Shown here piece by piece: positions 332 through 7,227 of a DNA stretch of 14,589 bases (its first letter is position 1; every line of letters begins with the position of its first letter). Source of the stretch: a virus (lineage: Duplodnaviria > Heunggongvirae > Uroviricota > Caudoviricetes). A program made the translations under genes and the position numbers. The stretch lies in the IMG/VR virus record IMGVR_UViG_2609459801_000008; one strand, 5' to 3'. Below the pieces are notes generated by a model. That model was not told the origin of the DNA. It ran no database searches and worked only from the letters and a program-made list of their open reading frames with translations.

Positions 332-2225
332 GTTCACTAGCTCTCTGCTGCTCCCGGGTCTGATATTGTTTTGAAAAGGCATCTGCTCTCTGTCTGAGTT
401 CAATTCCTTCCTGTTGTCGCTTGTTGTAATCGTTTATTGATGAATTTAGTACGTCCTTAGCAATTTTTTCTGCTTGAAGTACGCCCAATTGCTGCTTTAA
501 TCGTGCCAGCCTTTTATTTTGAGCTCCGCCATCTCCAATGCCACCTAACCCGAAAACTCCGGGTCGGGTATTTTTTTCTATTTCATCAATTTGACGGAGA
601 ACATCTGAGATTTTTTGATCAAGGGAGGCCTCACGGCCAATATCCAGCATGGAATCCCATGCCCATTTTGCGGAGTCTGCGACAGCTTTCCATGCAGTCT
701 CAAGATAACCAAGATTTTCTTTAATCTGGTTGGTGCGCTGGATCATTGAGGATGAGTATTCTTCTGTCGCAATGCGGGCGGCCTCCTGCTGGTTCCCTTC
801 ATCCTGTAGCGCCTTAATCTGGTTATAAGTCGCAAGTGTCAGAAAATGGTACTGATCATTAAGTTTTGATATGGCACTGACAGGATCCTTTGCAATTTCA
901 TTGAAGTCATTAACCAGTTGTTCGGTTGATATTCCTGTTACTTCGCTCGTTTTTACTATCGCTGTCGTCACTTGCTCCAGCGAACTGCTCGCTACCTTTC
1001 CCGAACGCACAAGCTGATTTAATACTGCCGCCGCAGCACCAGTTGTCGAATCAGCCGCATTCCCGGCACGTTGAGCTATATCGCCCAATTGCCCGCTGGT
1101 TGTCCCCAACTGATTTCCGGTAAGAATAAGAGATTTATTAAATTCGTCCTGCTCCTGAGAGCCTTTATAGTAAGCCAGTCCTAAGACCCCAACGGCTGCT
1201 GCGGCCAGGGTAAAAGGATTAATTAATCCCAGCACATAAGAACCTACACCTTTGATCGCCGGGCCAATCCCACCGAACATATCTTTTAGCTGGCCGCCCT
1301 GCTGCATTAACACCATAAATGGCGACTGACCAGTGGACAACCCAACAACAATATCCGTCATTTGTGCAGGCAACATGCGCATAGCAAAAGCCGTTTGTTT
1401 TGCCGACATTCCGGTTTTGCTTAATTGTGATTGAGTAACCTCAAGCTCACTCCGCATAGCACGAAGTTTTCCAGAAAGCTCCTCATACATTTCAGGAGAA
1501 AGCATCCCCTTAGCTTTTGCTTCATTGAGCTGTTTCTGTTGTTCTACCAGACGATTAAAAGCAGTTCCGACAGGATCAAGTTGAGCAATCAGACGTTGCA
1601 AAGCAACAACCTGTTCATCATGCGCTTTTGCTGCTTCTCGCTCTGCCTGAGCCTCTCCGGTAAGCTCTCGCCGTGTTTCCTGTATTTTTCGGCTATAATT
1701 CTCAAACTGAGAACCATTTATTTTCCCGGATGCAAACGCAGCATTAAGTTCATCATGCTGTTGTTCAAGATTTCTTAGCGCCGCAGCCAGAGGGTCGATC
1801 TTGTCCAGCATTCTTTGAAAGGCCTGAGCCTGCGCTTCCTGCTGGGCGGCAGCAAGTTTTCCGGCCTTCTCGGCTTCTCTCTGCGCTTGCGCAACCCCGC
1901 TCAATTCCTCTGTGGTTTCATTAAGTTTACGGACAAGAAATTCATATTCTTCTTTATCAATAAGCCCTTTATCGAAAAATTTCTTTAATTCAGAATAGCG
2001 TCGACCGACAGTATCAATTGCGGCACCAACTGGATCAATAGCTGCTTTTAATTTTGCGAGCGCGTTCTTCTCATCTTCTGTTGCCTTAGTCACTTTCCCT
2101 GCGCTATTTGCAGCAGTTTCCCCAGCCTGCGTCATTTTGACTAATGAGGAGGTCAGATTGTCAGCATTATTTTTCGCTCCAGTGCTATCAATAATTATTG
2201 CGAGACGCGAGGTTTGCTCTGCCAT
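327..2225 (-). CDS. Phage tail tape measure protein, 3'-truncated by the IS1 insertion (probably non-functional)
   Basis: 632-aa ORF with ATG at 2225 and SD AGGAG 7 nt upstream. N-terminal half has three ~48-aa coiled-coil repeats ([20 protein letters not shown]… / [20 protein letters not shown]… / [20 protein letters not shown]…) and a Gly-rich hydrophobic segment ([36 protein letters not shown]), both typical of lambda-family tape measure proteins. It follows the chaperone pair. The frame runs to the IS1 boundary and stops inside IS1 (327-329). Confidence 0.85.
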
Positions 2226-2390: not shown

Positions 2391-3160
2391 CTACACACAC
2401 TGCTCCTGAAAATACTGGTCATCCAGTGCAAAGATCACTGCTTCAAATTCATCGCGCTCAATCAATACCGGATGAGTGGCTAAATATTCATTTATCTCTG
2501 TCAGAGATAAAGGCAAAGGCACCCCAGCCATTCCAGCATAACGTCGGGCACGGGATATTACCGAATAGGCGTACAACAACTCCTTAAGCACCGGGTCTAT
2601 TTCTGGTTCCGGTATCGGTGGCAACCTGAGTTTTTCTCGCTTCCATCTTGCCTTTTCCCCCCTTTCTCCCCCGAACTCCGATAACCACCGCTGGGCAGCT
2701 ATGGCTTTTTTATCGTATCCTGCTTCTGCTGCTCTTTACCCTGGGCGATGCTGGCTGCTTCTGCAAGGATCTGCCAGTACAACTCTGGATTCTGCTTAAG
2801 CAGCGCGATCCCTCGTTCTGCCGTATATTCCAGTGCAACCTCAACACCATTAACCAGTTCACCAACCCCTTTCCAGTCTTTCAGCAGATAACGAGCGGCA
2901 TTATCAATGAGTAAATCATCAACAGAATCCACCTCGGAAACCTTTGAAATATCAAACTCCTTCGTTCCGACGTGCAAACTGGCATCCATTTTCTCAATGT
3001 GGCGACGGATTAATGCATTACGGGAGCGATACTGATCGTTATCGCTGCTTGCCACCAACAGTTTTAACCCGTCTACAGGTTTTAAGTCCTTCATTGGCGT
3101 AAACCAGCGTTCTCCACCAATGATAATTTTCTGATTAAGAATAAACATCCATAACCTCAT
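2391..3160 (-). CDS. Tail assembly chaperone fusion (lambda GT-like) made by programmed -1 frameshift at A_AAA_AAG
   Basis: The -1 frame is open from the slippery site through the track's 77-aa ORF (2391..2624, which starts on TTG and is not an independent gene). Hand translation after the slip gives …KKAIAAQRWLSEFGGERGEKARWKREKLRLPPIPEPEIDPVLKELL… with no stop until 2391. Confidence 0.6.
2699..3160 (-). CDS. Tail assembly chaperone (lambda G-like), zero-frame product
   Basis: 153-aa ORF, ATG at 3160 with SD GGGGGA 8 nt upstream. Sits between major tail protein and tape measure genes. Ends …DTIKKP* with the slippery heptamer in its last codons. Confidence 0.7.
   Translation of the reverse strand: MRLWMFILNQKIIIGGERWFTPMKDLKPVDGLKLLVASSDNDQYRSRNALIRRHIEKMDASLHVGTKEFDISKVSEVDSVDDLLIDNAARYLLKDWKGVGELVNGVEVALEYTAERGIALLKQNPELYWQILAEAASIAQGKEQQKQDTIKKP
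2705..2711 (-). other. Programmed -1 ribosomal frameshift slippery heptamer A_AAA_AAG
   Basis: Minus strand reads GAT ACG ATA AAA AAG CCA TAG. A AAA AAG is the same heptamer used by E. coli dnaX, placed 2 codons before the G stop, matching the conserved G/GT arrangement of long-tailed phages. Confidence 0.6.
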
Positions 3161-3208: not shown

Positions 3209-4171
3209 TCAACTAATCGCCTCAGCACTGGCTTTTGCGATCACGGCAGCCGGGGAATTTTTTTTTCTGGTTATCGTAGGTGCTTCATCTGCTGCGGTAA
3301 TGCTCAATTGAACCTGGATAATGTCGCTATTACCCCCATCAGGCCATTCACCTGACACCTGAACCTTCGGGAAACTGAAAGTGTATGCCCCCTCTCCATT
3401 CGAAAGCGTGAAGCTGAACGGAACTGTTTCTCCAGTCAGTGTTTTACTCCAGATTTCCCACGCGGCTTTAGACCATGAAAGCGTCACCGTACCGGACGGT
3501 GTAAAAGTAGTCGGAATATTTGCTCCTGCATAAGGCGAGCCAGTCCCGATACAACGCTGTGTCTGGAGTTTGTTATCGAACTGAATATCAAAACTGTCGA
3601 TACAAAAACCGTTACCTCCGGCAACACCATTCAGGCTTACTGCTGAAACCTCCTTAAACGAATAACGTAGCTTTCCTGCACTATCCACAGGTTCGCCTTT
3701 GATAAAATTCGTATCATCGGCCTTTGATTCCCAGTCCAGTCCGGCAAAGGTTACGGTCGCTGTAATATCGCCGTCGTTAGGGATCTGCATTTTCCATGAG
3801 CCAACCTGCGCTCCTCTGACGACAGAGGCAATTCCGACATCGGACGCATAGGTCGCCAGAGAAAATGTTATTCGCTCATTCCCCATTGTCAGAGAATCGC
3901 CTGACCATTCCGCGCCGAAACAGGATGCAAGAAAATCATCATGTTGACCCCAGCGAAATTTGGTACCAACATCACCGCCGACATCCACAGTGCCAGGCGT
4001 CGCCCCCTGAGCCATCCGGGAGCCACCAATCTCATTATTTTCGCCTTTATTCTGGGTGGGTTTTACTCCCCAGCTTGTGCGTTTTAATAAACTCCAGTCA
4101 CCACTTGCTGGCGTAGTGCCTGCAACCGTCTCCCGGATAAATGCCGAGATAACCTTTGCACCTGAACTCAC
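3209..4171 (-). CDS. Major tail (tube) protein, assigned by position
   Basis: 320-aa ORF directly upstream of the G/GT pair and tape measure gene. GTG start at 4171 with a strong SD (AGGAGG, 5-nt spacer) and an in-frame stop 4 codons upstream. Gly/Ser/Thr-rich, beta-rich composition. No motif-level identification. Confidence 0.6.
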   Translation of the reverse strand: MSSGAKVISAFIRETVAGTTPASGDWSLLKRTSWGVKPTQNKGENNEIGGSRMAQGATPGTVDVGGDVGTKFRWGQHDDFLASCFGAEWSGDSLTMGNERITFSLATYASDVGIASVVRGAQVGSWKMQIPNDGDITATVTFAGLDWESKADDTNFIKGEPVDSAGKLRYSFKEVSAVSLNGVAGGNGFCIDSFDIQFDNKLQTQRCIGTGSPYAGANIPTTFTPSGTVTLSWSKAAWEIWSKTLTGETVPFSFTLSNGEGAYTFSFPKVQVSGEWPDGGNSDIIQVQLSITAADEAPTITRKKNSPAAVIAKASAEAIS

Positions 4172-5351: not shown

Positions 5352-5746
5352 TATCCCCCCCTCACAACCCTGACTTGTGAGCGACTAAGTCCGTACGGTT
5401 TCAGCAGTGCTATCGCAAGCTGTAAATCGGGTTCAAGCAATGCAGTGCTGTTTGCTGGCAACTCAGAAAATGATTTCGATACACTGACCCCGTCAGCCGA
5501 CACGGCTTTACTGATAACAACGCCAGAATCATTTTTCTGCTGAAACAACTTACCGAATGAGGCAATTCTGGCTGCATATGCTCCCGCAAGTTTTACCTCT
5601 TCCGGAATACGGGATGGGTTAATTTTCAGGTTGAAGCCATTAAGCCAGGCATTAGCCATTAAAACAGCTTTATTTTTAGCGTTCTCACTCGTCCAGGCGT
5701 TCCCAAACGCATTATCAACGTCATCACAGGTCACGTAAGTGATCAT
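5351..5746 (-). CDS. gp6-like head-tail connector protein (tentative)
   Basis: 131-aa ORF, first gene of the connector block. N-terminal pattern (MITYVTCDDVDNAFG…KAVLMANAWL) resembles gp6-type connector proteins. Start overlaps the upstream gene by 23 nt. Confidence 0.4.
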   Translation of the reverse strand: MITYVTCDDVDNAFGNAWTSENAKNKAVLMANAWLNGFNLKINPSRIPEEVKLAGAYAARIASFGKLFQQKNDSGVVISKAVSADGVSVSKSFSELPANSTALLEPDLQLAIALLKPYGLSRSQVRVVRGG

Positions 5747-6443
5747 GTGTTCCGGAATCCAGATACAGCTCGGTCATTCCGCCGCTGTTTTTCTGCGTCT
5801 GTTTCTGCCCTAACTGGACAGCACCGATCGTCATAAACAATTCACCACAGCGACCGAGATTCGTGTACGTATTCACATCCTCGTTAATGCGCCCCATGAA
5901 TGAGAACGGTCGATCAACCGAACAGATAAAGCTGTTCATTGCCTTGCGTTTCACCCACGAAGCATGGCCGCCATTGTCACCAAGAAAATCCCCGCCCTGC
6001 GACATAGCGATGGAAAGAGCAGGTATTGATTCGTAGTACGCCAGCATTTCAGAAAGGATCGCATCCAGTTTCCTTATCGGAAAATAGGCCTGGTCATAGT
6101 TGCGATCCACCCGAAACTGGAACTCGTGATAATCATCATCGAGCTGAATGAAGTATTTACACCCGACCAGTTTTGCCAGGTCGAAACAGGCATTACGGGC
6201 GTAAAAAATTGAGCGGCGGTCACAGAAATTATCGGCTTCGTCAAAACGACTGGCGATATCGGCTTTGGAAAACACCAGCACCTGTTCACCAAATTCAGCC
6301 ATGTACTGATTCCGTGTCTTATCTTCATCATCAACAACGATAAAAATTTTCCCGGTATAGCCAGCACGACGCAACGTCCGGTAAGTCAGAACTTTGTCCG
6401 GTCGCCCGTGAGTCAGAATAAAGGCGCAAAAATCATCACGCAT
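5724..6443 (-). CDS. Hypothetical enzyme-like protein with paired acidic motifs (possible nucleotide-sugar or nucleotidyl transferase fold; function unknown)
   Basis: Track ORF is 5724..6464 (246 aa). I prefer the ATG at 6443 (239 aa, MRDDFCAFILTHGRPDK…) because it has a strong SD (GAGGAGGAGG) and overlaps the ParB-like stop as ATGCGTGA. Alternating hydrophobic strands plus IVVDDED and QLDDDY clusters suggest a Rossmann-like DXD enzyme. Inference only. Confidence 0.5.
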   Translation of the reverse strand: MRDDFCAFILTHGRPDKVLTYRTLRRAGYTGKIFIVVDDEDKTRNQYMAEFGEQVLVFSKADIASRFDEADNFCDRRSIFYARNACFDLAKLVGCKYFIQLDDDYHEFQFRVDRNYDQAYFPIRKLDAILSEMLAYYESIPALSIAMSQGGDFLGDNGGHASWVKRKAMNSFICSVDRPFSFMGRINEDVNTYTNLGRCGELFMTIGAVQLGQKQTQKNSGGMTELYLDSGTHDHLRDL

Positions 6444-7227
6444 ATTCCTCCTCCTCACCACCATGCATGATCTCCACCATGCGCTGCGTCATCCGGACAA
6501 ATCCATTTTCAATAGCCTGCTGATAATCAATGATCACCAGCGCCGACTCCTCGAAAAAACACTGAATTTCAGAGGGGGCGTGAGCGTAATAGTCCGCAAT
6601 TCTGCTGAAATTAAACACCGTGTGACGTTCTGCCGCACACAGGAGGAATTTCTCAATATCAGGCTCAAGGGACGCCGAACGTATCCGGCTGATCAGCTCC
6701 TGAGTTTTCGTATCGTCGTACAGTTCACTGATATCCGGTTTACCGCCCGACGGCTCATAAACAGGCGTATCAATTTTCGTCGTATACGGCTCCTCCTCAT
6801 TTCCTGTACCGGGCAAAACATCCGTCAACAGTTCATCAATTTCTGTCGGGATGAAGCCTGTCAGGGAGACATCAAAATCAGCATTGATTAGGTCCGACAG
6901 GTCCATCCGCAACAGATCTTCATCCCAGCCAGCATTCATCGGCAGGCGATTATCTGCCAGGCGGTACGCCTTTTTCTGCTCATCCGTCAGGCCAGACAGA
7001 ACAATGACCGGAACAGAATCCATTTTGAGCATTTCAGCCGCCATAACACGACCGTGACCCGCAATAATTTCGCCCTTTTCGTCAATCAGCACCGGATTAG
7101 TCCAGCCGAATTGCTTAATACTTTCTACCAGTTGTGCCACCTGCTCAGGGCTGTGCGTCCTGGCGTTGTGCGCATACGGTGACAATTCTTGTAATGGGCG
7201 ATAGACTATCTTTAATTTCTCGCTCAT
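6436..7227 (-). CDS. ynaK: ParB-like nuclease (ParB/Srx N-terminal domain) protein, Rac ynaK-like by synteny
   Basis: 263 aa. N-terminal region has ParB-N features (…VLIDEKGEIIAGHGRVMAA…, a GxxR box), and the C-terminus is an acidic tail (GGEEEEYA). It lies immediately downstream of trkG, as ynaK does in the Rac prophage. ATG at 7227. Confidence 0.7.
   Translation of the reverse strand: MSEKLKIVYRPLQELSPYAHNARTHSPEQVAQLVESIKQFGWTNPVLIDEKGEIIAGHGRVMAAEMLKMDSVPVIVLSGLTDEQKKAYRLADNRLPMNAGWDEDLLRMDLSDLINADFDVSLTGFIPTEIDELLTDVLPGTGNEEEPYTTKIDTPVYEPSGGKPDISELYDDTKTQELISRIRSASLEPDIEKFLLCAAERHTVFNFSRIADYYAHAPSEIQCFFEESALVIIDYQQAIENGFVRMTQRMVEIMHGGEEEEYA

Follow-up and report, generated by a model that had tools for sequence, protein, structure and literature searches.

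Two overlapping open reading frames (ORFs) between the tail tube and tape measure genes of a prophage raise the question of whether they are two separate genes or the two parts of one chaperone system joined by programmed -1 ribosomal frameshifting. They lie on the minus strand of the window, the whole 14,589-nucleotide stretch of Caudoviricetes DNA that was analysed (IMG/VR record IMGVR_UViG_2609459801_000008). Frameshifting in tail chaperone genes was first shown for lambda G/GT and has since been extended to the majority of long-tailed phages (Levin, Hendrix & Casjens 1993; Xu, Hendrix & Duda 2004, 2013, 2014; all as cited in PMC5009743). The class of G/GT-type chaperones with a programmed -1 frameshift was defined by Xu et al. 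(2004, as described in PMC5009743). The original prediction assigned the window's ORFs to such a lambda-type pair, made by slippage at an A_AAA_AAG heptamer. Comparison with relatives makes it very probable that evolution has maintained this heptamer as a -1 frameshift signal. The mechanism itself is not new, and the locus is an ordinary, well-conserved case of it, one more family of a textbook mechanism.

Gene neighbourhood and identity

The chaperone pair is placed between the tube and tape measure genes, with all of them on the same strand. The features of the region, in the direction of transcription, are the following.

3209-4171, minus strand: tail tube (major tail) protein gene, directly upstream; Pfam Phage_tube_2, E 9.4e-32
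2699-3148, minus strand: G-like upstream chaperone ORF ('ydaY' in E. coli annotation), 149 aa plus TAG; PHROG 313
2705-2711, minus strand: slippery heptamer A_AAA_AAG in X_XXY_YYZ phase, with AAA and AAG as the P- and A-site zero-frame codons
2699-2701, minus strand: zero-frame stop TAG, with one sense codon (CCA) between it and the heptamer
2391-2705, minus strand: T-like -1 frame extension, 104 codons (AIAAQRW...QEQCV) plus a stop at 2393-2391; PHROG 1189
2391-3148, minus strand: predicted GT-like fusion, 252 aa, junction ...QKQDTIKK|AIAAQRWLSEF...
332-2225, minus strand: tape measure protein gene, directly downstream; Pfam TMP_2, E 5.3e-82

In an intact copy of the prophage, the tube gene carries the PGAP name 'phage tail tube protein'. 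The G part matches PHROG 313, 'Tail assembly chaperone', with an E-value of 4.9e-46 (158 bits), and the fusion assembled in silico matches the same profile with an E-value of 8.2e-51 (174 bits). The fusion match runs unbroken from position 20 to position 246 of the 258 in the profile, which evidently contains full-length fusion products. The T part matches PHROG 1189 (E 1.4e-36) and, weakly, Pfam PF23812 Phage_TAC_18 (20.6 bits, E 4.9e-4, positions 12-78 of 79), for which the gathering cut-off is 27 bits. The G part had no Pfam match in the local Pfam copy, and neither the NCBIfam search nor the PDB sequence search returned a match. An AlphaFold2 model of a natural fusion protein (P0001, see below), built on a 33-row alignment, reached a mean pLDDT of 50 and a pTM of 0.30, values too poor for a fold test.

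A gap of 165 nt separates the T-frame stop (2391) from the tape measure start (2225). A terminator-like hairpin, GAAACCCACTTCGCGGTGGGTTTTTTG, lies inside the gap at 2248-2271 on the minus strand; the number of such sites in the region (2) does not exceed chance, with 1.2 expected.

Anatomy of the slip site and its reading frames

The zero frame of the ydaY-like ORF ends with GAT ACG ATA AAA AAG CCA TAG. The heptamer is found at the position near the ORF end given in the original prediction, and it lies in the X_XXY_YYZ phase. The stop is also close behind it, as had been stated, although the spacing is a single sense codon and not two codons. Likewise, the -1 frame proved to be open from the heptamer to the predicted end at 2391. 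After the slip, it reads GCC ATA GCT GCC CAG CGG TGG..., which translates as KKAIAAQRWLSEF...QEQCV. The junction peptide of the in-silico fusion is ...DTIKKAIAAQRW..., exactly the one that had been predicted. The KK at this junction is a trypsin cleavage site, and the junction-spanning peptide is QQKQDTIKKAIAAQRWLSE. Two tryptic peptides of the -1 frame, AIAAQR and WLSEFGGER, both lie upstream of all candidate T starts.

The 5' end of the pair had to be revised. The ORF had been taken to begin at 3160, but homologues align instead from ATG 3148 (MFILNQ...), which is their common start and has GAGG 6 nt upstream; ATG 3160 would add four codons that are not conserved among homologues. As the homologues align from the methionine at 3148, the short product has 149 aa and the fusion 252 aa. 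A stop closes the -1 frame nine codons before the slip site, and the T-like part can be reached from the upstream ORF only via a -1 shift.

The heptamer by itself is within chance, as the window holds three copies of A_AAA_AAG against 5.06 expected. The long open frame behind it is much less ordinary. Base composition gives a probability of 0.002 for an open -1 frame of 105 codons, and a comparable frame appeared in 35 of 20000 shuffles. When in-frame codon positions were sampled in nine further minus-strand ORFs of the window, 1.5% of them opened such a frame. The combination of an in-phase heptamer at the ORF end with a 105-codon open -1 frame is beyond chance. The other two AAAAAAG heptamers lie at 8710-8716 (minus strand) and 7611-7617 (plus strand). 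By coordinate arithmetic, the former falls within the trkG ORF and outside the X_XXY_YYZ phase.

Conservation of the slip site across relatives

The comparative set comprised 94 loci (14 genome loci and 80 viral contigs) drawn from Escherichia, Shigella, Citrobacter, Raoultella, Siccibacter, Serratia, Pantoea, Pectobacterium, Scandinavium and IMG/VR contigs. A canonical heptamer occupies the identical codon position in 93 of these loci: 90 carry A_AAA_AAG and three carry G_GGA_AAG, the heptamer of lambda. The remaining locus has the non-canonical G_GGG_AAG at the same position. In 91 of the 94, the -1 frame runs on for 100 aa or more. The zero-frame stop, by comparison, is found 3 nt past the heptamer in 72 loci, 21 nt past it in 13, 75 nt in two and 105 nt in seven. 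The position of the stop thus varies among relatives, whereas that of the slip site is kept. Homologues of the G part were found in Escherichia, Salmonella, Citrobacter, Klebsiella, Raoultella, Leclercia and Serratia; their C-terminal T[VI]KK motif hardly varies, but their endpoints do.

The exchange of A_AAA_AAG for G_GGA_AAG is informative about what has been conserved. It changes the zero-frame residue from lysine to glycine and keeps the X_XXY_YYZ pattern. Because the re-pairing pattern survives a change of residue, selection acts on slipperiness and not on the sequence of the G protein.

Among the genome loci, the slip site and the two-frame layout are kept down to ~55% protein identity. 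In phage records the layout extends to ~32% identity, and there the site is reduced to an A_AAG core. A tblastn search of phage genomes found the G and T parts in two frames in phages of Klebsiella, Erwinia, Pseudomonas syringae and Acinetobacter. In Acinetobacter phage vB_AbaS_TRS1, the existing annotation of TRS1_19 joins the two frames into one CDS at G_GGA_AAG. Erwinia phage Gungnir39 (L099) has GCA_AAG followed directly by TAA, and Pseudomonas phage Aurca01 (L097) has G_GAA_AAG; both keep only the A_AAG core. In Pectobacterium odoriferum (L012:2920-2926), the G_GGG_AAG site makes A-site re-pairing impossible. Despite their non-canonical sites, all three still have an open and conserved -1 frame. 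Their sites may be weaker slip sites that depend on a single tRNA, or sites in decay.

The locus is also widespread. The segment 2200-3400 of the window is matched in 1075 of 5426 complete E. coli genomes and is 100% identical to Salmonella phage SPF_0923. The two-frame layout was found in at least 10 genera, in intact prophages and isolated phages as well.

Coding selection and initiation in the -1 frame

In the first 44 post-slip codons (to TTG 2576), purifying selection is found in the -1 frame only. Substitutions fall mostly at third positions of that frame (e.g., 11/7/30 and 13/9/31). Where omega could be measured, it ranged from 0.10 to 0.17 in the -1 frame and exceeded 1 in both of the others. 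The first 28 post-slip codons are 74% identical across genera and contain no ATG, GTG or TTG in the -1 frame; the first such codon is TTG 2624. The sole start-type codon conserved across the loci is an ATG at alignment column 59, and initiation there would leave out the greater part of the conserved sequence.

These observations bear on the view that the two ORFs are separate genes, with the downstream one read from its own start (TTG 2624, GTG 2591 or TTG 2576) and the heptamer incidental. GenBank and PGAP do annotate a separate small ORF, an AAGGAG at 2585-2580 adjoins TTG 2579 and TTG 2576, and A_AAA_AAG is not over-represented in the window. However, the AAGGAG is too close to those codons, at 0 or 3 nt, and the three annotated or mechanical starts (TTG 2576 in GenBank, GTG 2591 in PGAP and TTG 2624 as the first in the ORF list) disagree with one another, and none of them is conserved. 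Predictions of the T ORF in databases are far fewer than those of the G ORF, and they are inconsistent. The purifying selection upstream of TTG 2576 also speaks against separate initiation, as does a slip site that is fixed in position while the zero-frame stop is mobile. Since the first 28 of the selected -1 codons are free of starts and the proposed starts are inconsistent, independent initiation does not explain the data, and a pair of separate genes is very unlikely. The claim that the ORF track hides a slippage pair therefore holds up, with the -1 frame under selection from the first codon after the slip.

Alternative readings: slippage by RNA polymerase and gene decay

A shift in frame could also arise before translation. 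As a rule, the RNA polymerase of E. coli slips efficiently only on runs of about nine residues or longer. In the window, the site holds six consecutive A, and polymerase that added or dropped an A in this A6 run would give some mRNAs that encode the fusion in frame; slippage on homopolymer runs is known in other bacterial and IS genes (PMC5009743). The relatives argue against this route. Those with G_GGA_AAG, G_GAA_AAG or GCA_AAG have at most four consecutive A and keep the two-frame layout, so that it is the pattern of tRNA re-pairing, and not the length of the run, that has been conserved. Transcriptional slippage is for this reason judged improbable, slightly more so than separate initiation.

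Least credible of all is that the pair is a single gene split by a frameshift mutation, or that the -1 ORF is noncoding and open by chance: the window copy does lie in a defective prophage and rare fused versions such as the 240-aa P0001 exist in databases, but the layout recurs in the 1075 E. coli genomes and the ten or more genera noted above, omega is ~0.1 in a -1 frame whose chance of being open is 0.002, and P0001 became fused through the loss of 12 residues at the junction, which makes it a derived state.

In P0001 (E. coli NB16F79_39920), G and T lie in one ORF, and the junction without the 12 residues reads ...AEAGYDKKAIAAQR.... A second protein, P0002, also has G and T fused and resembles an assembly in which both the A run and the G run carry indels. 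These two proteins may reflect real deletions or sequencing errors.

Proposed mechanism, stimulators and expected efficiency

With programmed -1 ribosomal frameshifting as the preferred reading, the tail assembly chaperone pair would be made from one mRNA as follows. The majority of ribosomes would translate from ATG 3148 to the TAG at 2701-2699 and yield the 149-aa 'G-like' protein. A small fraction would slip by -1 with AAA in the P site and AAG in the A site. Both lysyl-tRNAs would then re-pair with AAA AAA, reading would resume at GCC ATA GCT... and continue to the stop at 2393-2391, and the product would be the 252-aa 'GT-like' fusion. If the two products work like lambda gpG and gpGT, the N-terminal part common to both would coat the tape measure protein, the C-terminal part read in the -1 frame would bring in the tail tube protein, and the frequency of slipping would set the ratio of short protein to fusion. 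The sequence comparisons show the anatomy, its conservation, the selection on the -1 frame and the missing start of the T part; the production of the predicted fusion, its amount and these binding partners are inferred.

The searches for elements that stimulate frameshifting were negative. The local fold of the 116-nt region was no better than that of shuffled sequence (z = +0.54), and a consensus fold of 13 diverged loci gave -3.45 kcal/mol with one covarying pair and no stimulatory structure. No consistently conserved Shine-Dalgarno-like element was found upstream of the site: an AGGA-like sequence is absent in the Serratia, Pectobacterium and Siccibacter relatives, and it coincides with the conserved Q-[ED]-T codons. 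Given these negative results, a low efficiency is probable.

Reporter values for the two heptamers of the family are available for comparison and hardly differ from each other. Unstimulated shifting amounts to 0.29% on A_AAA_AAG and 0.28% on G_GGA_AAG; with the IS911 stimulator, the values rise to 4.3% and 3.8%, and with the IS3 stimulator to 39% and 43%, respectively (Sharma et al. 2014, PMC4066793, Table S3). The unstimulated reporter value of ~0.3% (PMC4066793) is below the fusion ratio in lambda (G:GT ~1:30; PMC5009743). Judged by these systems, the fusion would probably be a minor product, amounting to anything from a few tenths of a percent up to a few percent.

Comparison with known systems

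In the G/GT class, the short protein and a minor fusion are both made, and tail assembly requires the two of them. Those features of the class that can be examined by computation are found together at this locus: synteny with the tube and tape measure genes, an in-phase heptamer followed by an open -1 frame, a layout conserved among relatives, and a T part with no conserved start of its own. The assignment to a lambda G/GT-type pair is thus well supported. As in lambda, the pair lies between the major tail and tape measure genes and the -1 slip would occur at an X_XXY_YYZ heptamer close to where the first ORF ends. The zero-frame tail is also short, the -1 extension is of similar size (~105 aa here), and some relatives of the window locus carry lambda's exact G_GGA_AAG. 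The differences are in sequence and spacing. No homology to lambda gpG could be detected with hhalign (alignment A1: probability 0.07%, E 0.68). The heptamer in the window is A_AAA_AAG, with the stop 3 nt past the site and not 15 nt as in lambda. Whereas T overlaps H in lambda, here the T stop and the start of the tape measure gene are 165 nt apart, with the terminator-like hairpin in between.

The pair TRS1_18/TRS1_19 of Acinetobacter phage vB_AbaS_TRS1 (NC_031098) is a distant homologue with the same layout and a match to PHROG 313; its T part has 38.8% identity over residues 170-249. It differs from the window locus in its heptamer, G_GGA_AAG, in a zero-frame stop that lies 78 nt beyond the site, and in its host and the remainder of the phage.

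A gene of similar description is ECs1801 of the E. coli O157 Sakai prophage Sp9, which was placed in cluster A_AAA_AAG_25 and labelled 'tail assembly chaperone [true]' (Sharma et al. 2014, PMC4066793, Table S4). It is also an E. coli prophage tail chaperone gene with A_AAA_AAG and a stop directly behind the heptamer. ECs1801 was considered as a prior report of the window gene and rejected, as BLASTP gave no alignment at E <=100; its product, unlike the window protein, has 124 aa and belongs to a lambda-like tail module. Because similarity to gpG is not detectable and ECs1801 is unrelated, the window's pair is, as far as sequence comparison goes, a separate family within the tail assembly chaperone functional class.

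The dnaX gene of E. coli, which encodes gamma and tau, has an upstream Shine-Dalgarno-like element, a downstream stem-loop and ~50% shifting, and its shifted product is the shorter one. The original prediction had described the heptamer as dnaX-type. This is correct in that the A_AAA_AAG is identical and relies on a single tRNA-Lys. It does not extend to the stimulated cassette, of which the heptamer alone is shared: no downstream hairpin or other conserved structure was found here, an upstream AGGA/AGGAG-like element is present only in some lineages and is not conserved, and the shifted product is the longer one.

In the literature searched, no link of ydaY or of the Rac tail genes to frameshifting was found. 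For E. coli K-12, a 2003 abstract by Gurvich and colleagues reportedly puts forward 'pheL and ydaY' as new candidate genes in which A_AAA_AAG frameshifting is utilised.

State of the prophage copy and its annotation

The window is a decayed Rac-type prophage. Positions 1-331 are the end of an IS1 element, whose terminal inverted repeat ends at 331; this 331-base segment has matches in 4966 of 5426 E. coli genomes, and the median number of places per genome is 10. The insertion cuts the tape measure gene at about codon 632 (the intact homologue has 3234 nt), and similarity to an intact prophage (L100) stops at window position 332. Relative to the same prophage, ~7.6 kb have been deleted at 5751/5752. 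In L100, this segment contains the genes for the small and large terminase, portal (DUF4055), minor head, scaffold-like and P22-type capsid proteins. The ORF at 5724-6464 (minus strand) crosses the deletion junction and may therefore be a fusion artefact. The ORF at 7365-8840 (minus strand) is trkG, the Trk potassium transporter gene within Rac, and a partial ynaK is adjacent to it. The match to positions 1-797 of L100 places the window in the Rac-type prophage region beside trkG.

With the head genes missing and the tape measure gene cut by IS1, the window copy is unlikely to function. The G/T segment, on the other hand, is identical to that of intact relatives. The frameshift signal in the window is thus probably an intact relic that is not in current use.

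Current annotation does not reflect the arrangement. PGAP names the upstream ORF 'protein YdaY' and starts it at an internal ATG (MKDLKP..., 119 aa), at L100:12343-12702 and L102:443-802, which correspond to window positions 2699-3058 on the minus strand. This internal start apparently follows the truncated K-12 gene; the start conserved across genera (3148) lies 30 codons upstream of it. In RefSeq/PGAP records, the downstream ORF is either omitted or given as a separate hypothetical protein with an arbitrary start. For the records inspected (E. coli, Shigella, Salmonella-phage and Klebsiella-phage), the arrangement would be described more accurately by a single 'tail assembly chaperone' CDS, joined across the ribosomal slippage site.

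Evolution of the slip site

Two further ideas concern how the signal has been kept and changed. It is conceivable, though doubtful, that the family, most of whose members use the equally efficient A_AAA_AAG or G_GGA_AAG, records a turnover of slip sites. A more remote possibility is that use by the host keeps the G/T signal intact in defective Rac-type prophages. The exchange between the two canonical heptamers offers a clean example of selection on slipperiness and not on the encoded residue. If the members with non-canonical sites still make the fusion, slippage of a single tRNA, perhaps aided by the adjacent stop, would be enough for the chaperone ratio.
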